A stretch of DNA of 11,053 nucleotides from a virus (taxonomy: Duplodnaviria > Heunggongvirae > Uroviricota > Caudoviricetes): positions 1 through 11,053 of the IMG/VR virus record IMGVR_UViG_2585427766_000020; one strand, 5' to 3'. The notes under the pieces were generated by a model. That model ran no database searches, was not told the origin of the DNA, and saw nothing but the letters and a program-made list of their open reading frames with translations. The translations under genes were made by a program, and so were the position numbers. Positions 1 through 11,053 of the stretch are shown here, one piece after another (the stretch's first letter is position 1; every line of letters begins with the position of its first letter).

Positions 1-273
1 CCGACTGCGGCCTGAGTTTTTTAAGTGACGTAAAATCGTGTTGAGGCCAACGCCCATAATGCGGGCAGTTGCCCGGCATCCAACGCCATTCATGGCCATA
101 TCAATGATTTTCTGGTGCGTACCGGGTTGAGAAGCGGTGTAAGTGAACTGCAGTTGCCATGTTTTACGGCAGTGAGAGCAGAGATAGCGCTGATGTCCGG
201 CGGTGCTTTTGCCGTTACGCACCACCCCGTCAGTAGCTGAACAGGAGGGACAGCTGATAGAAACAGAAGCCAC
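1..273 (-). CDS. insA: IS1 InsA (transposition regulator), 91 codons; stop codon lies just outside the window
   Basis: Minus-strand translation from GTG at 271-273 gives [18 protein letters not shown]...[12 protein letters not shown], matching InsA as I remember it. The 90-302 ORF in the supplied track is a different frame and is not InsA. Confidence 0.88.
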
Positions 274-301
274 TGGAGCACCTCAAAAACACCATCATAC
301 A

Positions 302-1096
302 CTAAATCAGTAAGTTGGCAGCATCACCTGAAAACGCTTTGTGGATTTTACCCATTTCTTCGACTTTTGCAGCACGCAGTTGATCCATTACTTTGTCATA
401 AGAGAATCCAGAAGAGTAGATACGATACCCTTTCAGAAACTTTTCATGCAGACGCTGAATATTGTCCAGTAAATAAGCGAATACTAGAGGTGAATCAATT
501 CCATCACTAACTGCTTGGATACTTTCAATCAGAATATCTAGCTTCTGATCCTTATGGGTATCATCATTGAAACAAGCTATAAGGTTATCAAGATACTCTC
601 TTTGCAAATTTTGTACATTTTCTGCAGCGAAGTGCGGTAATAGCTTGATAACTTCTTTTTTCAGAAAAACTAACTGACAAGTTGAGTTATCAAAGTAGGC
701 CGCGGCCTCTTTTAGCAGGTTAACGAACTCGAGAATCTTCCGGTAGTTGCTGATGAAAACGGGGATATCTTCATCATCATTACGAAACTTTGTTTCTAGG
801 ATGAAGTAATTAGCTGGCTCAAGGCACTGATGCTTTGGAGCATTTAGCAATTTTTCATGGGTGGAAAACACAAGTCCCAGTCCACTCCGTGGTGACGTCA
901 CACGTAGGATGATCGTGTTACCTGGAGCGATAGTGCCTGTATCAATAGAAAGACCATATTCACGAGGATCATCAAGCAAAGTATCAACCAGATCACAATC
1001 GGACTGATCTAAGAGCAACAGCGAACCGACACGAAACCCCTCTTGGAATTCCATACGACGATACAGATCTGTCAGCATCTCAAATGAAATCGCCAC
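302..1096 (-). CDS. Hypothetical protein, second gene of the YejK-like operon; C-terminus truncated by IS1 (last 8 codons GDAANLLI + stop are encoded by the IS1 repeat)
   Basis: GTG start at 1094-1096 with GAGG Shine-Dalgarno 7 nt upstream, 2-nt gap to the upstream gene's stop (translational coupling). Low GC. No domain recognisable by eye. 302-328 is IS1 sequence. Confidence 0.7.
   Translation of the reverse strand: MAISFEMLTDLYRRMEFQEGFRVGSLLLLDQSDCDLVDTLLDDPREYGLSIDTGTIAPGNTIILRVTSPRSGLGLVFSTHEKLLNAPKHQCLEPANYFILETKFRNDDEDIPVFISNYRKILEFVNLLKEAAAYFDNSTCQLVFLKKEVIKLLPHFAAENVQNLQREYLDNLIACFNDDTHKDQKLDILIESIQAVSDGIDSPLVFAYLLDNIQRLHEKFLKGYRIYSSGFSYDKVMDQLRAAKVEEMGKIHKAFSGDAANLLI
306..328 (-). 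repeat. IS1 terminal inverted repeat (insA-proximal end, 23 bp)
   Basis: Direct read: atcagtaagttggcagcatcacc on the + strand, the reverse complement of the IS1 IR. Confidence 0.9.
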
Positions 1097-1098
1097 GA

Positions 1099-2106
1099 TT
1101 AAACCTCAGTCATCCACATTTCCCTAAATTCTTCAGGTACATTACGTAGGGTGATAATATTTGTTTCCGGATCATAATCAATATAGCCTTCAGTTTTCCC
1201 TTCCCGGTCAAACTTAAGTTCCCAATATTTAGACTTGCCTTTAAAAGATACCAGAGCCCGAATGACTCGACCATCAGGAACGAAGCCATCCGATAACTCC
1301 AACTCTTCAGCAGCAAGTTTACCAGATAACTCCTCGGGAGCCTGGGGCCAAATGGCATTAACAAGGGTTTCAAGACTAAGTGGTTCACCAGCCTTACTTA
1401 GTGCATGTAAGTGTTCAAACGCACTCTTAAGAAATGCATCTTTTTCAGCGCCGTCAAGTCCTTTCTCTGCCGCAAATGCTTTTAAAACGTCACGTAACTT
1501 TTCAGACTCTCGTTTGGCGATTAAGACATCATTACAGCCGAGGAACTGTTTAAAATAGTTTGAAACATTACCTTGCCCCTTAAGAAAACTGATATAGCGC
1601 TCTGCGCCACTTTCCCACGCGGTTAAGTCAATGCGCCCAGCCATACGCAGCTTAGCAATATCAAGATAGGTACTATCTTGGATGTTAAAATCATCTGTGA
1701 CAGTGGATCCAATGGTAGCGCTTACAATAGCTATCAACAGGTGTTCATTGTGTCCTATCACGATATTTGCAAAAAGAACATAACCACCAGTAGCCATGTT
1801 TTCTCGCTGAGAACGTTCCGTCAGGTGATGCATCATTCGGCAGGAACTTTGGTAGAAATCATCAACACCTTCGAGAAAGTCCCCAGCCATTCGTTCCATA
1901 GGATAGTTATCCGTATCGCCTTCAAAATAGCCATAACCTTTACCTGTGCGTCCTGCATATTTTGCACAAATATCGTTTATAAGGCGCTGGGAGGCTTCAG
2001 TAACTAGACCTTCTTCAGGACTCAATCTCTCAGAAGCGTCTCCATTTTGTTGTTTGTCTAAAATGTGAACTACAACGTGTTTAACTTCAATGGTCTGCTC
2101 AGACAT
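1099..2106 (-). CDS. YejK/NdpA-family (NA37) nucleoid-associated protein homolog, 335 aa, mobile-element-borne divergent copy
   Basis: Same length as E. coli YejK (335 aa). Core TYLDIAKLRMAGRIDLTAWESGAERYISFLKG matches the remembered YejK block [20 protein letters not shown]...RYLTFLKG; C-terminal YIDYDPETNIITL resembles IFWDPATDTLTI. SD AAGGTGGA 6 nt upstream of ATG. AT-rich codon usage unlike the neighbouring phage genes. Confidence 0.8.
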   Translation of the reverse strand: MSEQTIEVKHVVVHILDKQQNGDASERLSPEEGLVTEASQRLINDICAKYAGRTGKGYGYFEGDTDNYPMERMAGDFLEGVDDFYQSSCRMMHHLTERSQRENMATGGYVLFANIVIGHNEHLLIAIVSATIGSTVTDDFNIQDSTYLDIAKLRMAGRIDLTAWESGAERYISFLKGQGNVSNYFKQFLGCNDVLIAKRESEKLRDVLKAFAAEKGLDGAEKDAFLKSAFEHLHALSKAGEPLSLETLVNAIWPQAPEELSGKLAAEELELSDGFVPDGRVIRALVSFKGKSKYWELKFDREGKTEGYIDYDPETNIITLRNVPEEFREMWMTEV

Positions 2107-2176
2107 TAGCTATCCACCTTATTTTTTATTGCTTAATGGCAAATAATTTCTGCTATATGTTCTCGTTAGGAACACA

Positions 2177-2584
2177 TTAACCCACATTTTTTAACCGCTC
2201 AATCGTTGCGGATAATTCCTTCAGTTGTTTTTCCATCTCAATCACACGCTGTTTTTCTTCAGCGCCTCGCATGAGATCTCGCCGAACCTCAGGATCTAAC
2301 TGGTTTAGAAGTTCAAGCATTTTAAGGTCTGACGGGCTGAATTGATGTTGTGTTGGTACAGCAACAATTTCTTTAGATGGAATATGTTCTTTACCGGTAA
2401 GTAGCCAATCGATCGATACACCCAAATGGGTGCTTAGCGCAACAAGAGCCTCTGCGTTTGGTTCTCTCTCTCCACGCAAATAGTTTTGAAGTGAGCGATA
2501 TGGAATTTTTGATAAGTTAGATAATGCCTTTATTGTCATGCCATTAGCATCCATCACTTCACGCAATCTCTCTTTTGTACTCAT
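2177..2584 (-). CDS. Phage repressor, XRE/CI-type HTH DNA-binding protein (135 aa) with coiled-coil C-terminal half and no S24 peptidase domain
   Basis: MSTKERLREVMDANGMTIKALSNLSKIPYRSLQNYLRGEREPNAEALVALSTHLGVSIDWLL is a typical HTH_XRE fold signature. Leftward, divergent from the early operon. ATG at 2582-2584 chosen over the 2680 start, which would overlap the rightward gene and promoter. Confidence 0.8.
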   Translation of the reverse strand: MSTKERLREVMDANGMTIKALSNLSKIPYRSLQNYLRGEREPNAEALVALSTHLGVSIDWLLTGKEHIPSKEIVAVPTQHQFSPSDLKMLELLNQLDPEVRRDLMRGAEEKQRVIEMEKQLKELSATIERLKNVG

Positions 2585-2600
2585 TTGAACATATCTCAAT

Positions 2601-2628
2601 TTGACACACTCATTTGGGTGTGTACAAT
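2601..2628 (+). promoter_or_regulatory. Sigma70-type early promoter for the rightward operon: TTGACA (2601-2606), 16-bp spacer, TACAAT (2623-2628)
   Basis: Near-consensus hexamers read directly, about 45 bp upstream of the Cro/Ner-like start. Confidence 0.55.
2604..2623. promoter_or_regulatory. Candidate repressor operator: inverted repeat ACACAC-N8-GTGTGT inside the early promoter spacer
   Basis: Perfect 6-bp arms read directly; lies between -35 and -10 where a repressor would occlude RNA polymerase. Confidence 0.45.
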
Positions 2629-2672
2629 AGACCCAATAGAGTACATCATAACCTAACAGGAACACGGTGCAT

Positions 2673-2897
2673 ATGAACAAACAACAAGTTCGGGCACGGC
2701 TGGTTGAACGAGGCAGTAGCTTGCGCCAGTTCGCGCTTAACGCGGGCTATGAACCACGAACAGTCACCCAGGCAGTCAGTCGCTGGGCTGGTAAAAGTGA
2801 ACTACCTCGCGGTCGTTTGACTTATCGGATTTTGCGAGATCTATCGGTTGCAATAGGTAAAGAAGTTACCCCCGGTATCCTTAAGGAGGCGTCATGA
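2673..2897 (+). CDS. Cro/Ner-like small DNA-binding protein (about 74 aa)
   Basis: First rightward gene after the switch. RLVERGSSLRQFALNAGYEPRTVTQAVS resembles the Mu Ner HTH region in pattern. ATG 2673 preferred; GTG 2667 is an alternative. Stop overlaps the next start (ATGA at 2894-2897). Confidence 0.6.
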   Translation: MNKQQVRARLVERGSSLRQFALNAGYEPRTVTQAVSRWAGKSELPRGRLTYRILRDLSVAIGKEVTPGILKEAS

Positions 2898-3202
2898 ATA
2901 AACCAAATACATCAAGCTCAGGTACCCGTATTTTGCGCGTTCTTAAGGCCTTACGTGGCCACGCTTTGAACGGTGTTTCTAACGGGGAACTAGCGGTTGC
3001 ACTGCACGAATCACCGGCAAACATCAACCGGGCACTTAACACGCTCATTGAAGAAGGGTTGGCTCTGAAACTAGAAAACGGGCGTTTCGCACCAGGCATC
3101 CAGTTGCTGCAGATCGCCATGGCCCACAGTAACGAGATGGCACGTGCACAGGATCGCATTAACGAAATCAACCAACGTGTTATTTCAGGTAGTCGTTTGT
3201 AA
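2894..3202 (+). CDS. Winged-helix HTH DNA-binding protein (102 aa), hypothetical
   Basis: Strong SD AAGGAGG at 2883-2889. ILRVLKALRGHALNGVSNGELAVALHESPANINRALNTLIEEGLA looks like a MarR/IclR-type wHTH. Confidence 0.6.
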   Translation: MNKPNTSSSGTRILRVLKALRGHALNGVSNGELAVALHESPANINRALNTLIEEGLALKLENGRFAPGIQLLQIAMAHSNEMARAQDRINEINQRVISGSRL

Positions 3203-3212
3203 GGAGTAATCA

Positions 3213-4124
3213 ATGGGACGCACCAAATCACCGGTTAGCACTGAACTGAACGTCGAGGTACCGCTGTCGGATGATCTCAATGTCAGTCTAAACGCCATGA
3301 CACAGCATCGCATGGAAATCATGCAACAGTTCGGCGATGGTCTGCCCTATGAGCGCGATCGTGTTGTCCATGAGGCACGCTTTTATATGGCACAGAGCGC
3401 TGAGGCCATGCTGGAGGCAGGTAAGCGGCTGATAATCCTTAAGGAAAATGAACCACACGGGGAGTTTATAAAGATTCTTGAAAGTGAGTTGGGGCTGGCA
3501 TACCGGACATCTGTGAGAATGATGCAAGCATCGACAAAATACTTATCCCCGGCGCTGAAACCAAATGTGCCAACGTTGGCACATTTGGGAAAAGCCAAAC
3601 TTTTCGAATTAATGACAGAAGACGACGAAGAGCTTGCCGAACTGGCCGACGGCGGCACAGTTGCCGGCCTGACGCTTGACGACGTTGATCGCATGTCAGT
3701 ACGTGAATTGCGTCAGGCCCTGCGCGAAGCGCGCGAAACCAACGCAGCACAACAGCGCGTACTCGCTGACAAAAATGAAAAAATAGACTCACTCTCCACC
3801 AGACTGGAGAAGAAATCCCGTATTCAGCCGCCTGAGCCTGATGAAGAGGTTAAGAAGCTGCGGGCGGAAGTGACAGCATTAGCGGTTGAGGCGGAATCTG
3901 CTATCGCCGTTCGACTGTCCAGCGCTTTTGAGACGCTGTGCGCATATTGTGCTGAAAACATGATTGATACCCCCAGAGACTTCATGGCAGGCCTGGTCTG
4001 TCAACTGGAAAGCACAGCGCGTAGCCTGCGCTCCACATTTGACCTGCCGGATGAGCCAACAGGCAATGCCGCGCCTTCATGGCTGACTGAGCCGACGCCA
4101 CAGATTAACGGGCTGGAGGCATAA
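3213..4124 (+). CDS. Hypothetical coiled-coil protein (303 aa) located between the regulators and the transposase
   Basis: SD AAGGAG at 3201-3206. Long intact ORF in the operon; C-terminal half has heptad-like charged repeats. No family confidently recognised. Confidence 0.6.
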   Translation: MGRTKSPVSTELNVEVPLSDDLNVSLNAMTQHRMEIMQQFGDGLPYERDRVVHEARFYMAQSAEAMLEAGKRLIILKENEPHGEFIKILESELGLAYRTSVRMMQASTKYLSPALKPNVPTLAHLGKAKLFELMTEDDEELAELADGGTVAGLTLDDVDRMSVRELRQALREARETNAAQQRVLADKNEKIDSLSTRLEKKSRIQPPEPDEEVKKLRAEVTALAVEAESAIAVRLSSAFETLCAYCAENMIDTPRDFMAGLVCQLESTARSLRSTFDLPDEPTGNAAPSWLTEPTPQINGLEA

Positions 4125-4127
4125 CCA

Positions 4128-5897
4128 ATGAATGCTGCCCTGACTGAACGACTGGTTTATGTCGCCCGCGCGGCACGTGACGCGGGGCATGGTAAACGCG
4201 GTGCAATATACGACGCTGCCTGTGCTGAACTTGGCATGTCCCGCGCCACTCTGCTGCGCAGGCTGAAGGAGGTCTCTGTGACTGATAAACGCAAAAAACG
4301 CGCTGATGCCGGACGCAGCGCCCTGACCCGCGACGAAGCCGCGCTGATATCTGCCACACTGCGTGAGGCCACCCGCAAGAACGGTAAGCGTCTCTATTCC
4401 ATCGCGGATGCAGTGGAAACCCTGCGGGCTAACGGCTTTATCTCCGCAGGCAGAACAGATGAAACCACCGGTGAGTTTTTCCCGTTGTCCGAAGATGCCA
4501 TCAGTCGTGCCCTGCGTAACTATGGCCTGCACCCGGAACAACTGGATGCTCCTGCGCCGCATACCGAAGTGGCCAGTCTGCATCCCAATCATGTCTGGCA
4601 GATTGATGCCTCGCTCTGCACGCTTTACTACCTGAGCAATGGACACAAAGGGCTGCAGGTGATGGACAGCGCGAAGTTCTACAAGAACAAACCCGCTAAC
4701 CTTGCCCGTATCGCCAGTGACCGCGTGTGGAGTTACGAGATTACCGACCATGCCAGCGGCTGGATTTACGTTGAGTATGTGACGGGTGCGGAATCCGGTG
4801 AGAACCTGTGTTCTGTGCTTATCAACGCCATGCAGGAGCGTGGCGGCGCAGACGTGCTGCACGGCGTGCCAAAAATACTCTATCTCGACCCCGGTTCGGC
4901 AAACACCGCGGGTATGACGAAAAACATGTGCCGCTCACTGGGCATTGACCTGATAGCGCACAAGCCGCATAACGCCCGCGCCACCGGACAGGTGGAAAAG
5001 GCGCGTGACATTATCGAACGCAAGCTGGAGCCGGGTCTGAAGTTCCGGCCGGTTCACAGTCTGGAAGAACTCAACGCGCTGGCCGCGAAATGGCGCAGCC
5101 ACTTTAACGCCACGGCTGTTCACAGCCGCCACGGTAAAACCCGCACGGATATCTGGCTGAAGATTACTGCTGAGCAGCTGAAAAAAGCGCCTTCCGTTGA
5201 GGTATGTCGTGAACTGGCTGTGGCGGCACCAGAACTCCGCAAAGTCACGCCAAAACTTCGTGTCTCGTTCCGGGGCACTGAATTTGACGTATCAACGGTA
5301 CCGGGCGTACTGGTCGGTGAAAAACTGATGATTACCCGTAACCCGTGGCGCAGCGATGTGGCACAGGTGGTTCTGACCGGTGAGGACGGCCACGAGACGT
5401 TCTTCCTGGTCGAAGAGGTCAGAAAGAACGAGTTTGGCTTTGCTGAAGGCGCGGCGGTATTTGGCGAAAGTTACAAAGCCCTGCCGGAAACCCCGGCGCA
5501 GATGGCGGCAAAAGAAACCGAAGCGCTGGTCACCGGTACAGACAACGCCGCAGATGCAGCTGCCGCACGCAAGGCGAAGGCGCTGCCGTTCGGCGGGCGG
5601 CTTGACCCGTATAAACATATTGATGACGCCACACTTCCGGCCTATATGCCGAAGCGAGGTCAGGCCTCTGACGTACGCGGACCGCGCACTGAACAGCGTC
5701 CCATGACTCATGTGGAGGCCGCGAAAGCCCTGCGCGGGAAGTTCAGCGCCAACGGCCTTACCTGGACGCCGGAACATTACCGCCAGTTAACGGCACAGTA
5801 CCCGGACGGCGTACCGGAAGCCGCACTGGATGAAGTCATGGCCACGCTGACCACGCCGGCCCGCAGCAGTGTTATCAGCATTGTTAACGGCAACTGA
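4128..5897 (+). CDS. DDE transposase of a transposable phage (Mu A-like, rve/integrase-core family), 589 aa
   Basis: SD GGAGG at 4115-4119. HPNHVWQIDASLCTLYY is typical of the first catalytic-Asp region of rve-type transposases. Followed by a B-like ATPase and by gam, gemA-like and mor. Confidence 0.8.
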   Translation: MNAALTERLVYVARAARDAGHGKRGAIYDAACAELGMSRATLLRRLKEVSVTDKRKKRADAGRSALTRDEAALISATLREATRKNGKRLYSIADAVETLRANGFISAGRTDETTGEFFPLSEDAISRALRNYGLHPEQLDAPAPHTEVASLHPNHVWQIDASLCTLYYLSNGHKGLQVMDSAKFYKNKPANLARIASDRVWSYEITDHASGWIYVEYVTGAESGENLCSVLINAMQERGGADVLHGVPKILYLDPGSANTAGMTKNMCRSLGIDLIAHKPHNARATGQVEKARDIIERKLEPGLKFRPVHSLEELNALAAKWRSHFNATAVHSRHGKTRTDIWLKITAEQLKKAPSVEVCRELAVAAPELRKVTPKLRVSFRGTEFDVSTVPGVLVGEKLMITRNPWRSDVAQVVLTGEDGHETFFLVEEVRKNEFGFAEGAAVFGESYKALPETPAQMAAKETEALVTGTDNAADAAAARKAKALPFGGRLDPYKHIDDATLPAYMPKRGQASDVRGPRTEQRPMTHVEAAKALRGKFSANGLTWTPEHYRQLTAQYPDGVPEAALDEVMATLTTPARSSVISIVNGN

Positions 5898-5907
5898 GGA
5901 GGAAAAC

Positions 5908-7074
5908 ATGCTGGTACTGAAGCAGCAACTGAAAGAGGCCCGTATTTCACAGGCGGTGGTGGCGAGAGCTGTCGATGTTTCTGAGGCCACGCTGGCCCAG
6001 ATTGTGAATCATAACGCGTGGCCCCGCACCAGCCCCGGAGAAGTGCGCCGGCGTCTTGCGTCCTGGCTGGAAAGTCAGGGGATTGATACAGCGAAGAGTT
6101 TTGATGCTGTACAGGGCGCGGCCACGCCCCGTACATCGGGTACCACAGATAAAACGAGCCTCAGTGAGGAAGAGAATATGTTACTCAAAAAACAGGTGTT
6201 ATTTCCAGCAACCAAAAAAGCGTTTGGTCTTTTCCGTGACCCGTTCGCCGACGAAGCCATGCAGGGTTCTGATGATGTGTTCACCACCCCGGACATTCGC
6301 TACGTGCGTGAGGCGTTGTACCAGACAGCACGTCATGGTGGGTTTATGGCCGTCATCGGTGAGTCCGGTGCGGGTAAATCCACGCTGCGCCGTGACCTGA
6401 CTGAACGTATCAACCGCGAGAATGCGCCAGTGATTGTTATCGAGCCATACATCATCGCTATGGAAGACAACGATGTGAAAGGGAAAACTCTGAAGGCAGC
6501 AGCGATTGCCGAAGCCATTATCAGTACCATCGCACCACTGGAAAGCATCAGACGCAGTCAGGACGCCCGCTTTCGCCAGTTGCATCGCGTCCTGAAAGAC
6601 AGCAGCCAGGCGGGGTTCAGCCACGTTCTGGTGATTGAGGAGGCCCACAGTCTGCCCATTCCGACACTGAAACACCTCAAACGCTTTTTTGAGCTGGAGT
6701 CCGGTTTCAAAAAACTGCTGTCCATCGTGCTAATTGGTCAGCCGGAACTGGCGACAAAACTGTCTGAACGCAATATGGAAGTCCGTGAAGTCGTTCAGCG
6801 CTGTGAGGTGGTCGAACTTCTGCCTCTGGACAATAACCTTGAAGAATTTCTGACGTTCAAACTGCAACGGGCCGGTAAACAACTGACGGACATTATGGAC
6901 GCCAGCGCAGTGGATGCCATACGTGCCCGCCTGAGCAATCCGGGAAGTCATCGTAAAAATATGGTCAGCCTGCTGTATCCGCTGGCCGTCAGTAACCTGG
7001 TAATAGCCGCCATGAATCTGGCTGCTGAAATCGGGGTTCCACAGGTCAACGCTGACGTTGTCAAAGGGGTTTAA
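5908..7074 (+). CDS. AAA+ ATPase, transposition target-DNA activator (Mu B-like/TniB-like), 388 aa
   Basis: SD GAGGAGG at 5896-5902, ATG 5908. N-terminal HTH-like segment, then Walker A GESGAGKST and Walker B-like HVLVIEEAH. Sits immediately after the transposase as in Mu A-B. Confidence 0.8.
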   Translation: MLVLKQQLKEARISQAVVARAVDVSEATLAQIVNHNAWPRTSPGEVRRRLASWLESQGIDTAKSFDAVQGAATPRTSGTTDKTSLSEEENMLLKKQVLFPATKKAFGLFRDPFADEAMQGSDDVFTTPDIRYVREALYQTARHGGFMAVIGESGAGKSTLRRDLTERINRENAPVIVIEPYIIAMEDNDVKGKTLKAAAIAEAIISTIAPLESIRRSQDARFRQLHRVLKDSSQAGFSHVLVIEEAHSLPIPTLKHLKRFFELESGFKKLLSIVLIGQPELATKLSERNMEVREVVQRCEVVELLPLDNNLEEFLTFKLQRAGKQLTDIMDASAVDAIRARLSNPGSHRKNMVSLLYPLAVSNLVIAAMNLAAEIGVPQVNADVVKGV

Positions 7075-7076
7075 TA

Positions 7077-7346
7077 ATGAAATCCACCACAGGTATCAAC
7101 CAGCAAATCAGCAAAGTGCAGTCAGCCATTATGGCGCTTAAGGCGACGAACACGGATGTACAAAGCATCACCATCAGGGGGAACAAACCTGTCATCCGCG
7201 TTTCCCGGAGTGCGCATTGCATGCGCATGCTTGAGCAGGGAAAGGCCTGTTATCTGTATACCGGACATGACCACAGGGGATATTTCCGTCAGGGCGTTTT
7301 CGAACTGCACGGCTGTCGCGTCGTGTGGCCGGAATCTTTGTGGTAA
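7077..7346 (+). CDS. Hypothetical early protein (89 aa)
   Basis: Intact ORF 2 nt after the B-like stop, same strand and operon. No family recognised. Confidence 0.5.
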   Translation: MKSTTGINQQISKVQSAIMALKATNTDVQSITIRGNKPVIRVSRSAHCMRMLEQGKACYLYTGHDHRGYFRQGVFELHGCRVVWPESLW

Positions 7347-7373
7347 TCAGCACAACCGGAGAAATCATAAAAA

Positions 7374-7904
7374 ATGGCAAAAAGTACAAAAGGTGCAAAA
7401 CGTATCAAGGCCGCAGCAGCACTCTGGGTGCCGGGGACACGTGAAGAGGTCATTGAGGGCATCAGACTGCTCGGTGACGCACACCGTGAACTGGTCAGGG
7501 CTGAAACAGAAATGAATGACGCCATTGGCGATATCACCGCACGTTATGCCCCGCTCACCGAGAGCCTGAAAAAACGCATGGCCGAACTGCAGTCCGGTAT
7601 TCAGACATGGTGTGAGGCACACCGTGATGAACTGACCGGCAACGGGAAGGTGAAGTTCGCTAACCTCACCACCGGCGAGGTGCAGTGGCGAAACCGTCCG
7701 CCATCAGTCAGTATCCGTGGGGCGGATAATGTTATTGAATTACTGAGACGTCTGGGGCTTGAGCGCTTTATCCGTGTAAAGGAGGAAATAAATAAAGACG
7801 CTATCCTGAATGAAAAGGACGCCGTGAAAAATATTCCCGGTATTACCATAAAAAGTGATATTGAGGATTTTTCAATAATTCCTTTTGAGCAGGATGTGCA
7901 GTAA
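7374..7904 (+). CDS. gam: Host-nuclease inhibitor protein Gam (Mu Gam family; binds DNA ends, protects against RecBCD)
   Basis: 176 aa. Blocks ETEMNDAI, WCEA.RDELT, PPSVSIRG and GIT.KS.IEDFSIIPFEQ match Mu Gam (174 aa) as I remember it. Confidence 0.9.
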   Translation: MAKSTKGAKRIKAAAALWVPGTREEVIEGIRLLGDAHRELVRAETEMNDAIGDITARYAPLTESLKKRMAELQSGIQTWCEAHRDELTGNGKVKFANLTTGEVQWRNRPPSVSIRGADNVIELLRRLGLERFIRVKEEINKDAILNEKDAVKNIPGITIKSDIEDFSIIPFEQDVQ

Positions 7905-8001
7905 ACACACCACGTTAATTATTTAATAAAAACATTTTCTTTTTTATTCCGGCGTCAGCGCCGTGGGCTTCTGCACGCCGGAAACAGAGGAGAATTAAAT
8001 T

Positions 8002-8196
8002 ATGATATTTAAATGTATTCAGTGCGAGAGGGATATAACAGCCCTGCGTTTTCACAGCGCCATCGCCGTGATGTCCGGTAAATACCACATCCCTGCGGTA
8101 CGCGTCACCCTGGTCTGCCCGTACTGCAGCCAGCATTTTTCGGCAGACGTGCCCGTCATGGAATTCTCCCGCCCTGACAGGGAGGACTCGCAATGA
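8002..8196 (+). CDS. Small zinc-ribbon-like protein (64 aa), hypothetical
   Basis: Two CxxC pairs (CIQC...CPYC). SD GAGGAG at 7987-7992. Stop overlaps the next start. Confidence 0.5.
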   Translation: MIFKCIQCERDITALRFHSAIAVMSGKYHIPAVRVTLVCPYCSQHFSADVPVMEFSRPDREDSQ

Positions 8197-8465
8197 TTAC
8201 CCCACAGGAAGCACGACAGCGCACCCGAACCCTTGTTGAACACTATGTCAACGAGTGTGAATGCCGCGACCTCACCGATGTGAAGCACGTCCTGACGGCG
8301 CTAATCAGCATGACCGCTCAGGCCATTGTGGCGACCAACGGAAAGGCGGCTGCCCTGCAGGTACTGGTGAACACACTAACCCACACGGCAGCGCATGAGG
8401 TGCCGTACCGGATGGAAACCACTGCAGAAGGCGGTCTGCACATCACCGTCAGCCGGAATCACTGA
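8193..8465 (+). CDS. Hypothetical protein (90 aa)
   Basis: ATGA start/stop overlap with the upstream gene; GC-rich coding-like composition. No family recognised. Confidence 0.5.
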   Translation: MITPQEARQRTRTLVEHYVNECECRDLTDVKHVLTALISMTAQAIVATNGKAAALQVLVNTLTHTAAHEVPYRMETTAEGGLHITVSRNH

Positions 8466-8474
8466 GGGCGCAGC

Positions 8475-8780
8475 ATGACACGGTACACCATACTCACCCG
8501 CACCGCCCTCTACCGTCTGGCCCTGCAGCGTTTCGGGCCGGACGCACAGGCCCTGAAACTGACAGAAGAGGCCGCTGAACTGGCAGCCTGTGCTGCCCGC
8601 AACCTGAACGGACAGGGCAGTGAAAGTGACCTCGCGGCAGAGCTGGCAGACGTGGAAATCATGACAGAGCAGTTGCGCCTTCAGGGGATGGACCGGCTGA
8701 TTGACTTCCACAAACAGAAAAAACTGGAACGCCTTGCCGCACGGCTGGGCGTCATGTACACCGGAGATACTGAACAATGA
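8475..8780 (+). CDS. MazG-like nucleotide pyrophosphohydrolase family protein (101 aa)
   Basis: LKLTEEAAELAACAARNL...ESDLAAELADVEIM resembles the EExxE / ELADV helical signature of small MazG-like all-alpha NTP pyrophosphatases. Assignment from motif pattern only. Confidence 0.6.
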   Translation: MTRYTILTRTALYRLALQRFGPDAQALKLTEEAAELAACAARNLNGQGSESDLAAELADVEIMTEQLRLQGMDRLIDFHKQKKLERLAARLGVMYTGDTEQ

Positions 8781-9460
8781 CAGACTTGGATAAACACATT
8801 GAAAAACTGAAAAAGTTGCTGGCGCTGGCAGCATCCGGCAACCCGTATGAGGCTGCTCTGGCACTGCGCCGCGCCCGTAAACTGATGGATGTTCACGGCA
8901 TCACACATTCCGACATTGCCATGAGTGATATTGATGAAACCATCAGTCATTACTGGCCGACAGGCAGTCTCCGTCCACCGCGCTACATGCTGGGCCTGAT
9001 GAACATCATCCGCGAGGCATTTGGTGTTAACTCCATAATTCACCCCGGCACATATCCGGGTGTGGGGTTCTACGGCAACCGGGAACGGGCCGCACTGGCT
9101 GCGTACACCTGGGAAGTGCTGGCCCGCCAGCTGAAAAAGGCGCGTCAGCAGTATATCAGCGCACAGAACAAAAGAATAAAAACTGCCACCCGTACCAGCC
9201 GTGGTGACCAGTTTGCTGAAGGCTGGGTGCTGGCCGTTATCAGTGAAATACAGTCCTTCGCCCTGACCGATGACGAACGTGAACTGATGCAGCAGTGGCT
9301 GGAACATAAATACCCGCAGACGCAAACCACCAGGGCGCGTAAACCGGGAAGAAGCCGCAATGGCGACGCCTCGCGCTATGCGGGGTTTCGTGAAGGGCAG
9401 AACGTCAGACTGCACCGCCCGGTCAGTGGGCAGGAACAACAGAAACTGGAGGCCAGATGA
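8777..9460 (+). CDS. DUF2786-like phage protein (227 aa)
   Basis: N-terminal IEKLKKLLALAASGNPYEAALALRRARKLM is the characteristic DUF2786 motif, common in Mu-like and other phages. ATGA overlap with the upstream stop. Confidence 0.65.
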   Translation: MTDLDKHIEKLKKLLALAASGNPYEAALALRRARKLMDVHGITHSDIAMSDIDETISHYWPTGSLRPPRYMLGLMNIIREAFGVNSIIHPGTYPGVGFYGNRERAALAAYTWEVLARQLKKARQQYISAQNKRIKTATRTSRGDQFAEGWVLAVISEIQSFALTDDERELMQQWLEHKYPQTQTTRARKPGRSRNGDASRYAGFREGQNVRLHRPVSGQEQQKLEAR

Positions 9461-9687
9461 TTACGCTATCAGGTAACAGCCGGAAATTAAAAGCCTGCCG
9501 AATATCTGCCAGATACCTTTTTGCCCGCGCCTTTTTTAAGAACGTAAGGCCGGGGATCACAATTGGTGTTATTGCCGGACGCGAACAGGTTGAAAAATAC
9601 ATGTCAGGTGCATGGTGGAATAACGACCCTGTCATTGCTGCCCGTAATATTCATATCAGTTGGGGGGATATTCAGAATGACGGCTGA
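9457..9687 (+). CDS. Hypothetical protein (76 aa)
   Basis: ATGA overlap with upstream gene; in-operon ORF. Confidence 0.45.
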   Translation: MITLSGNSRKLKACRISARYLFARAFFKNVRPGITIGVIAGREQVEKYMSGAWWNNDPVIAARNIHISWGDIQNDG

Positions 9688-9892
9688 ATCTGTTGTATGT
9701 GCCCTGTTCTGGTATTGTTTTGTCGGTTGGTGTACTGCTGAACTGCACCGCCGTTCAGGGTTTTATTCACGTTACAGTGGTGCCGGCTACTGGATTAGCT
9801 GGTCGGTGATGTTCCTGTGCTGGCCTGTGGCGCTTCCTTTATATGTCGATTATATCGGTGGCGCAGGTAAAAGGAGCAACGATGATGACTAA
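9677..9892 (+). CDS. Small membrane protein with two predicted transmembrane segments (about 71 aa)
   Basis: Internal ATG at 9677 of the 9563-9892 ORF chosen to minimise overlap. Hydrophobic stretches VVCALFWYCFVGWC and YWISWSVMFLCWPVALPLYV. Confidence 0.45.
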   Translation: MTAESVVCALFWYCFVGWCTAELHRRSGFYSRYSGAGYWISWSVMFLCWPVALPLYVDYIGGAGKRSNDDD

Positions 9893-10334
9893 ACAACGTC
9901 TTATCCAGCTCATTCATATTGCCCGTAATGAACTGGGTATGGATGAAGACACCTACCGCCAGATGTTACAGGGGCTGACCGGTAAAGCCTCAACCAAAGG
10001 AATGGATACCACACAACTAAACTGCGTGCTGGAATCCATGAAAAGGAAAGGCTTTCGCGTTAAGCCTGCCAGAAAAGCCAGCTCCGGTTTACCGCTGGAT
10101 AACCATCCGCAGTCCAGGAAAATCCGTGCGCTATGGCTTGAAATGGCTGCTGCCGGCATTGTTCGTGACCGTTCAGAAAATGCATTAGCGCGGTGGATCA
10201 AGCGGGAAACGGGCATCAGCGCCCTGCGCTGGCTCAATACTGAACAGGCAAGCAGTGTTATTGAGAAACTGAAGAAGTGGCAGCACAGAGCTGCGGGAGT
10301 AAAACATGAGCGACCTGAATCAGTTTCGAAGTAA
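9882..10334 (+). CDS. gemA: GemA/gp16-like protein (Mu-like prophage gp16 family, DUF1018)
   Basis: SD AAGGAG at 9871-9876, ATG 9882. RLIQLIHIARNELGMDEDTYRQMLQGLTGKAS matches the remembered N-terminal signature of the Mu gp16/GemA family. Sits immediately upstream of mor as in Mu. Confidence 0.7.
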   Translation: MMTKQRLIQLIHIARNELGMDEDTYRQMLQGLTGKASTKGMDTTQLNCVLESMKRKGFRVKPARKASSGLPLDNHPQSRKIRALWLEMAAAGIVRDRSENALARWIKRETGISALRWLNTEQASSVIEKLKKWQHRAAGVKHERPESVSK

Positions 10335-10695
10335 AGGGCCGGAACTCCTGGTGGAACTGGCACAGCATACCTCTGAGACCGTTCGCGAGATTATTGATAT
10401 TGAGCCCGCAATTGCCGACCAGATTGGTCAGGCCGTCGCGAACCGCATGATGCAGGTCTGGGGCGGGCAAAACGTTTATTTCCCGATGGGCATGGTATGG
10501 AAGGTCAGTCAGCGCGACCGGGAAATCTTCAGGGAGTTTAACGGACGTAACCACCATGAACTGGCCCGCAAATTTGGTGTTTCGCTTCAGTGGGTCTACA
10601 GCGTGGTTAAGCGGGTAAGAAAAGAAGAACTGGATCGGATGCAGGGCAAGCTATTTGCTGATGAACCCGATGTAGATACGGAGAAAAAAGAGTAA
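10306..10695 (+). CDS. mor: Middle operon regulator Mor (Mor/C family transcription activator), 129 aa
   Basis: Same length as Mu Mor. VYFP and FNGRNHHELARKFGVSLQWVYSVVKRVRK match the Mor/C-family conserved FNGRN...Y and HTH region. Overlaps the gemA-like 3' end by 29 nt. Confidence 0.85.
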   Translation: MSDLNQFRSKGPELLVELAQHTSETVREIIDIEPAIADQIGQAVANRMMQVWGGQNVYFPMGMVWKVSQRDREIFREFNGRNHHELARKFGVSLQWVYSVVKRVRKEELDRMQGKLFADEPDVDTEKKE

Positions 10696-10724
10696 TATCT
10701 GCAATCAGGCTGGAGCGAGTTCTG

Positions 10725-11053
<329 letters not shown>

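Follow-up and report, generated by a model that had tools for sequence, protein, structure and literature searches.

The DNA analysed here, hereafter termed the window, is a stretch of 11,053 nucleotides from a virus of the class Caudoviricetes (record IMGVR_UViG_2585427766_000020). It contains a small gene that a first-pass annotation had described as a MazG-like NTP pyrophosphohydrolase located together with Gam in a Mu-like early operon. The gene, its sites and its surroundings comprise the following features:

2667-10695, plus strand: early-gene string of a BcepMu-type prophage, with same-strand genes that overlap or are separated by short gaps
7374-7904, plus strand: gene of a Gam-like host-nuclease inhibitor (Pfam Phage_Mu_Gam E=1e-40; PHROG 491 E=9e-73)
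8464-8468, plus strand: Shine-Dalgarno sequence GAGGG, read from the sequence, 6 nt 5' of the pyrophosphatase ATG
8475-8780, plus strand: gene of a predicted small all-alpha NTP pyrophosphatase (MazG-like) of 101 amino acids, identical to RefSeq WP_000199400.1
8565-8579, plus strand: codons of E31-E32-A-A-E35 (EExxE), predicted first half of the metal-binding site on helix 1, from conservation and alignment to EEmGEL of Bacillus MazG
8640-8657, plus strand: codons of E56-L-A-D59-V-E61 (ExxD), predicted second half of the metal-binding site on helix 2, from conservation and alignment to EELGDV of Bacillus MazG
8712-8732, plus strand: codons of K80-Q-K-K83-L-E-R86, a conserved basic patch, from conservation and coevolution
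8777-9460, plus strand: DUF2786/DUF7168 gene, 3' of the pyrophosphatase gene (Pfam DUF7168 E=6e-26, DUF2786 E=2e-9)
10846-10856, no strand: right prophage terminus (...AAGTCTAATCA), where three genomes are identical to 10856 and then diverge

The open reading frame at 8475-8780 represents a genuine gene that evolves under purifying selection and not a chance ORF. It starts with ATG and comprises 101 codons, the preceding gene stopping at 8465, 9 nt ahead of the start codon. The frame is kept in Escherichia phage PhiKM (93% amino acid identity), Klebsiella phage KP12 (68%) and Kp4866-3 (44%), and in the comparison with PhiKM and KP12 third codon positions hold most of the differences, with Nei-Gojobori dN/dS ratios of 0.24 and 0.22, respectively. 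Close homologues amount to 46 enterobacterial protein clusters, and a tblastn search of 50,697 phage records detected homologues only in PhiKM, KP12, Phi06_2974 B and Kp4866-3. At its 3' end, the stop codon overlaps with the start codon of the DUF2786/DUF7168 gene (caATGAca, 8777-8780), so that translational coupling of the two genes is possible.

The immediate neighbours and the homologues themselves show some variation. A 90-aa ORF (8193-8465; PHROG 3691, function unknown) separates the zinc-ribbon ORF from the pyrophosphatase gene in the window and is absent from KP12, where the latter two genes abut. KP12 also carries a different gene at the position of the DUF2786/DUF7168 protein (8777-9460), which belongs to PHROG 421 (function unknown). 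Three enterobacterial homologues of 166-169 aa (P0011, P0029 and P0030) contain about 70 extra residues at their C-terminus (LPxRELLEDWCGAVP...), two (P0025 and P0036) are annotated as fused to the preceding zinc-ribbon ORF, which corresponds to window 8002-8196, and another (P0001) contains an internal duplication of 10 aa.

Positions 328-10856 of the window share about 99-100% identity with a portion of a prophage that 18 complete E. coli genomes carry in differing chromosomal locations. In these genomes, the lysis, terminase and portal genes occupy the other strand further to the left, and the early operon points outward, with the end of the phage just past Mor. A DNA adenine methylase gene is found between the two prophage arms (positions 1-6000 of the E. 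coli prophages L001 and L002, and 2667-10695 of the window). The right end of the prophage (...AATCA) lies at 10856 and is followed, from 10857 to 11053, by host dkgA, which is interrupted after about codon 66, whereas other genomes carry the same prophage near yidL or near yhfW, the differing insertion sites being as expected of a transposable phage. At the other end, positions 1-327 constitute the end of an IS1 element, matched at 100% identity in thousands of E. coli genomes, which cuts off a prophage gene (302-1096, minus strand) in a junction that, within the window, would look the same for an insertion of IS1 and for an IS1 accompanied by a deletion of late genes.

The truncated gene is part of a two-gene cassette beside the repressor and on the same strand as the repressor (window 302-2106, minus strand; 5564-7779 in L001). 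Its first gene encodes a protein of 401 aa with a soluble N-terminal part and about three transmembrane helices, which shows a weak PADLOC match to KwaA (E=8e-5) in the part missing from the window, and its second gene a homologue of the nucleoid-associated protein NA37 (Pfam E=1e-80); in the Kiwa paper, NA37 is not linked to KwaB. The cassette could be cargo expressed during lysogeny, possibly a defence system that combines a membrane sensor with a DNA binder.

Within the early-gene string, regulators are followed by DUF3102, an rve transposase, an AAA+ transposition protein, an 89-aa ORF, Gam, the zinc-ribbon ORF, the 90-aa ORF, the pyrophosphatase, DUF2786/DUF7168, two small ORFs, GemA/gp16 and Mor, an order that is identical in L001, L002 and PhiKM. 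Since PhiKM, a relative that has been isolated, is a classified member of Bcepmuvirus and BcepMu shares the same layout, we assign the element to the BcepMu type and not to Mu proper. The initial description of a Mu-like early operon thus holds with respect to position, as the pyrophosphatase gene lies between the transposition genes and Mor, which corresponds to the semi-essential early region of Mu, and with respect to Gam, which is encoded on the same strand 570 bp 5' of the gene, but it does not hold for the identity of the element. In phage Mu itself, tblastn among the same phage records detected no counterpart of the gene. Co-transcription of Gam and the pyrophosphatase, where the largest nearby gap measures 97 bp and follows Gam, is plausible and is something that we infer from the packing of the genes, since promoter and terminator consensus sites in the window were no commoner than in shuffled sequence and thus argue neither for nor against it.

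On the level of sequence, the encoded protein can be placed in the all-alpha NTP pyrophosphatase superfamily (MazG/HisE/DCTPP1/dimeric dUTPase). Its residues 2-100 match positions 114-214 of the 218 positions of PHROG 2245, 'nucleoside triphosphate pyrophosphohydrolase' (E=3.4e-33), as likewise does the homologue from Kp4866-3, and the identical RefSeq protein is named NTP pyrophosphohydrolase, although the names in PHROG, RefSeq and BFVD stem from automated annotation and not from experiment. RefSeq and PHROGs already list the gene under this family label, and its discovery adds little. Searches of the protein against Pfam MazG (PF03819), MazG-like (PF12643) and PRA-PH (PF01503) gave no match even at E-values up to 1, and in NCBIfam only the PRA-PH domain of hisI was detected, with 13.7 bits against a cut-off of 42.7. 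When the sequences of the PDB were searched by phmmer with the protein and by hmmsearch with a profile of 14 sequences, chance matches only were obtained (IWS1, KaiA). A later profile search of the PDB returned weak matches including 5ie9, 2q73, 2q5z, 2gta and 1vmg, where the best NTP pyrophosphatase was of the 5ie9/2gta type (Bacillus MazG/YpjD) with E=0.0094.

The family around the protein is large. A search of 1.84 billion cluster representatives with a profile built from close homologues detected 10,784 at E<=1e-3 and 2,133 at E<=1e-10, with most of the members found in this way being 90-110 aa long. Among 74 diverse members, 21 match Pfam MazG (PF03819), three MazG-like and three PRA-PH, and the member P0170, which matches the profile of the window's family with E=2e-16, passes the gathering score of Pfam MazG (25.1 bits against 22). 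For a comparison between profiles, we built an independent alignment from PF03819 proteins of the Bacillus MazG/YpjD type, to which hhalign aligns the family over 46 columns with a probability of 88.8% and E=2.5e-6, placing EEAAEL on EEmGEL and AELADV on EELGDV. Comparisons of this kind are informative only with profiles on both sides, since single-sequence targets such as E. coli MazG, the probable Atd1 discussed below and gp06 of BcepMu constitute a weak test; in this weak test, the family profile found nothing in E. coli MazG (probability 0.7%). Because the Pfam and NCBIfam models and the comparison with E. coli MazG all fail, we regard the protein as representative of a distant, uncurated subfamily and not as a canonical MazG. 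Judged from its sequence, this subfamily is large, phage-specific and outside the coverage of Pfam. The designation as MazG-like NTP pyrophosphohydrolase is therefore appropriate for the superfamily, where it is backed by PHROG 2245, the profile alignment and the acidic residues described below, but not for MazG in the strict sense, and one of the outcomes that the first-pass annotation had named as refuting it, the lack of a significant MazG-family profile match, did occur if taken literally, in Pfam and NCBIfam.

The acidic residues that would be expected to coordinate a metal ion, to which the first-pass annotation had also drawn attention, are indeed present and either invariant or nearly so. 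Among the 74 diverse members, E31, D59, Q66 and L87 are invariant and E32, E35, E56, K83 and R86 are conserved in at least 90%, and K80 is invariant among close homologues. The Mg2+ ligands of MazG from Mycobacterium tuberculosis were identified by structure and mutagenesis as E119, E122, E138 and D141, and those reported for the dUTPase of Campylobacter jejuni are E46, E49, E74 and D77 (PMC10014863). Both share the E-x-x-E/E-x-x-D spacing found in E32-x-x-E35 and E56-x-x-D59, and the four acidic positions that characterize the superfamily are located on facing helices in the model of the window protein. A similar picture emerges from coevolution, where the top pairs include E35-D59, E35-E56 and E32-E56, and where K83 couples with E32, E35 and E56 and K80 with E61. 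By analogy to Lys and Arg residues of the C. jejuni dUTPase (PMC10014863), the basic patch comprising K80, K83 and R86 may bind phosphates. Since K80 and K83 would be too distant from their acidic partners within a single straight hairpin, the patch would presumably complete the active site from a neighbouring subunit or after folding back of the chain. Taken together, it is very likely that the protein belongs to the class of Mg2+-dependent (d)NTP pyrophosphohydrolases, as predicted from these features.

An AlphaFold2 model obtained with the alignment of the 74 sequences (pLDDT 95.6, pTM 0.81) consists of a straight hairpin of two long helices encompassing residues 9-44 and 50-90; a first model from a shallow alignment had a pLDDT of 77.6 and gave no significant match in a fold search. 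Foldseek comparison of the better model with the PDB, which rests on a monomer that cannot display an oligomeric bundle, gave no significant match either (best E=0.16, TM <=0.5, rmsd 5-8 Å). All-alpha NTP pyrophosphatases account for 18 of the 22 top matches in this search, including DCTPP1 (7mu5), the PRA-PH domain of MtHISN2, 5ie9, 1vmg, 2gta, 2oig and 4qgp, and further down the list are MazZ of phage S-2L (7ody, E=2.8) and E. coli MazG (3cra, E=3.3). Solved MazG enzymes form a compact four-helix monomer, in contrast to the straight hairpin of our model. In BFVD, a collection of predicted viral structures, significant matches (E=1e-4 to 8e-4, TM 0.72-0.79, rmsd 1.1-3.0 Å) are to models of phage proteins named NTP pyrophosphohydrolase, and the hairpin is thus a feature of the models of the subfamily.

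The register of the hairpin was compared with mean-field coevolution in 261 near-gapless sequences, whose effective depth is only about 196; an earlier run had been discarded, as it was dominated by gap artefacts. The pairs 36-60, 35-59, 26-71, 23-73 and 12-84, for which the sum of both positions amounts to 94-97, fit the register with an enrichment of p about 0.01, which we count as supportive only, because the range was picked after viewing the data. Two other ranges of this sum, 139-144 (p=0.09) and 114-118 (p=0.05), were not convincing.

When related to known systems, the protein has in common with Bacillus MazG/YpjD (5ie9, 2gta; PF03819) a single domain of about 100 aa and the motifs EExxEL and EExxD(V) on antiparallel helices. 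It differs in that only 46 core columns align and it scores below any Pfam MazG match, in a shorter linker between the motifs, where Gly-Pro alone joins the first and second helical segments, and in its straight hairpin, which superimposes on 5ie9 with a TM of about 0.4. DCTPP1/RS21-C6 and the integron enzyme iMazG (7mu5, 2oig, 2q5z), tetrameric house-cleaning dNTP pyrophosphatases, are of similar size, all-alpha and carry the same pair of acidic motifs. DCTPP1 (7mu5) is the best structural neighbour in the PDB (E=0.16, probability 0.95, TM 0.49), although matches of this type are not significant, with an rmsd of about 8 Å, and the residues determining substrate specificity could not be aligned. 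With E. coli MazG, a protein of 263 aa that is linked to mazEF and contains two domains in tandem, the single 101-aa domain of the window protein shares the type of motif that defines the superfamily.

Within its own lineage, a counterpart in location is provided by gp06 of BcepMu, named 'pyrophosphatase' (2668-3105 of the BcepMu stretch L010), which is encoded at the equivalent position two genes past the transposition ATPase, contains the motif pair SEVAEAME ... EVELAD and falls into PHROG families termed 'pyrophosphatase'. With 145 aa and no Pfam match, it is longer than the 101-aa window protein, to which it displays no detectable similarity, including in hhalign against the single sequence, a weak test. 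Phages of the BcepMu lineage seem to retain such an enzyme here, recruited from different subfamilies.

Further insight into a potential role is provided by the genomic context of distant family members. All seven that were located on contigs reside in early replication and recombination modules of phages or prophages, upstream of the terminase genes. Genes near them include SSB, ERF or RecT, replisome organisers, DNA polymerase A, primases and DNA methylases, as well as Mu-Gam-like proteins, ThyX and PAPS-reductase-like genes (two cases each). On one of the contigs, a Com-like zinc-ribbon gene directly follows the family member (6278-6442 of L016), echoing the zinc-ribbon neighbour in the window, and an NA37 protein is encoded, in addition to a family member, on a contig of a Firmicute phage (8100-9107 of L019). 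The location of relatives in replication modules, although genomic context is indirect evidence of function only, speaks for an enzyme that acts on the (d)NTP pool while the phage synthesizes its DNA. Such a role accords with the properties of MazG from cyanophage S-PM2, a phage enzyme of the MazG family that had once been proposed to reprogram the host via (p)ppGpp and was found to act on dNTPs, with a preference for dGTP and dCTP, and without activity towards (p)ppGpp (PMC6850273).

From these observations, we infer catalytic activity, substrate, the oligomeric nature of the active site and the physiological role as follows. The protein would be a minimal single-domain enzyme, in which two antiparallel helices juxtapose E32 and E35 of helix 1 and E56 and D59 of helix 2, and these four residues would bind Mg2+ and catalyse the conversion of an NTP to the monophosphate and pyrophosphate. 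K80, K83 and R86 probably complete the site, most likely as part of a neighbouring subunit in a dimer or tetramer. Presumably produced alongside the transposition proteins and Gam from the early operon of this BcepMu-type phage, it would most likely serve to cut back or clean up the (d)NTP pool when the phage DNA replicates, for instance through the removal of dUTP or of some other dNTP that is unwanted or in excess, in the manner of other small phage MazG-like enzymes. As a whole, this picture of a small predicted pyrophosphatase serving phage replication is the explanation that we consider best and, on balance, probable. The physiological part taken by itself, the service to phage DNA replication, is a tentative assignment. 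In the literature, we found no measured activity or substrate for any member of the subfamily.

The strongest of the alternatives, although in our view an unlikely one, assigns to the protein a function in anti-defence, by hydrolysis of (p)ppGpp, another alarmone or a signalling nucleotide early in lytic growth, which would blunt abortive infection wherever its pathways rely on nucleotide messengers or the stringent response. A precedent exists in Atd1 from the Pectobacterium phage PcCB7V, a MazG-like protein that hydrolyses ppGpp with a Km of about 50 µM and protects against TIR-STING and retron-TIR systems (bioRxiv 10.1101/2022.06.09.495361) and for which alone, among phage MazG-like enzymes, a role of this kind has been demonstrated. 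Early expression together with Gam, a known counter-defence protein, would fit such a function, and a Gam protein also inhibits Kiwa (PMC11785009). Like the window protein, Atd1 is a phage protein that is small, consists of one domain and displays an 'RFG ... EExxEL ... ExxD' pattern, yet the 86-aa protein QQG33500.1 of PcCB7V, which is encoded two genes from a nucleotidyltransferase and is probably Atd1, has only this motif region in common with it. QQG33500.1 is PRA-PH-like (Pfam E=0.0013) and belongs to PHROG 6408 instead of PHROG 2245, and neither BLASTP (E=0.23, in an irrelevant segment) nor hhalign (probability 0.5%) relates the two. PcCB7V is a lytic phage of 146 kb, unlike the prophage in the window, where the gene is devoid of nucleotidyltransferase or NAD-salvage neighbours and where a PADLOC scan provided no match for the protein or its neighbours. 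Furthermore, the seven sampled relatives are located in replication modules and not in anti-defence islands, and S-PM2 MazG, the other phage MazG that was assayed on (p)ppGpp, is inactive on this substrate (PMC6850273). The anti-defence or host-takeover role that had been suggested by the first-pass annotation thus finds no support in our analysis and is speculation. Less likely again is a combined scenario, in which the phage subfamily of PHROG 2245 with its more than 10,000 clusters would be a structurally distinct type of NTP pyrophosphatase, with one hairpin per subunit and a site completed across subunits by K80, K83 and R86, that in BcepMu-type phages might, independently of Atd1, serve early counter-defence by acting on an alarmone or signalling nucleotide.

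Nucleotide pools could also be reprogrammed in connection with DNA modification or a bias in base composition, where one canonical dNTP is destroyed so that another nucleotide is used, as is the case for the dCTPase gp56 of phage T4. MazZ of phage S-2L offers a model for this function and its structure (7ody) is among the structural matches of the window protein, although this match is weak (E=2.8). The presence of ThyX, PAPS-reductase-like genes and DNA methylases next to relatives, and of the DNA adenine methylase in the full prophage, point in the same direction, but the window contains no genes for base modification, whether PurZ-like, for a dNMP hydroxymethylase or for deazaguanine. Transposable phages use the replication machinery of the host and replicate within its DNA, which makes a wholesale replacement of bases unlikely, and we regard this possibility as improbable.

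The lowest standing among the alternatives is held by a function other than catalysis, where a helical hairpin would have kept the MazG-like motifs while acting as regulator or adaptor, or would moonlight, as do some phage dUTPases that act as derepressors. The short length of 101 aa, the plain two-helix model lacking a four-helix monomer and the TM values of at most 0.5 to solved enzymes would be compatible with this notion. Against it stands the fact that the strongest conservation across more than 10,000 clusters is found in E31, E32, E35, E56 and D59 and in the basic patch, which moreover co-vary, the pattern that is expected from selection for catalysis, and a non-enzymatic protein is therefore highly improbable. 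A role in defence as MazG-like NTP-depleting effector, reminiscent of some PUA-HAD systems, is unlikely for a gene that is part of the lytic early operon and is not located beside the repressor.

Returning to the favoured reading of a pyrophosphatase that would serve phage replication, small MazG-like genes rank with the most frequent accessory genes that phage replication modules carry, substrates have been measured for very few of them, and the published substrates of phage MazG-like enzymes disagree, with dNTPs described for S-PM2 and (p)ppGpp for Atd1. Since the related phage PhiKM has been isolated, the gene in the window offers a tractable example in E. coli. Finally, the retention of some pyrophosphatase at this position of the early operon in the BcepMu lineage points to a need for such an enzyme during replicative transposition.
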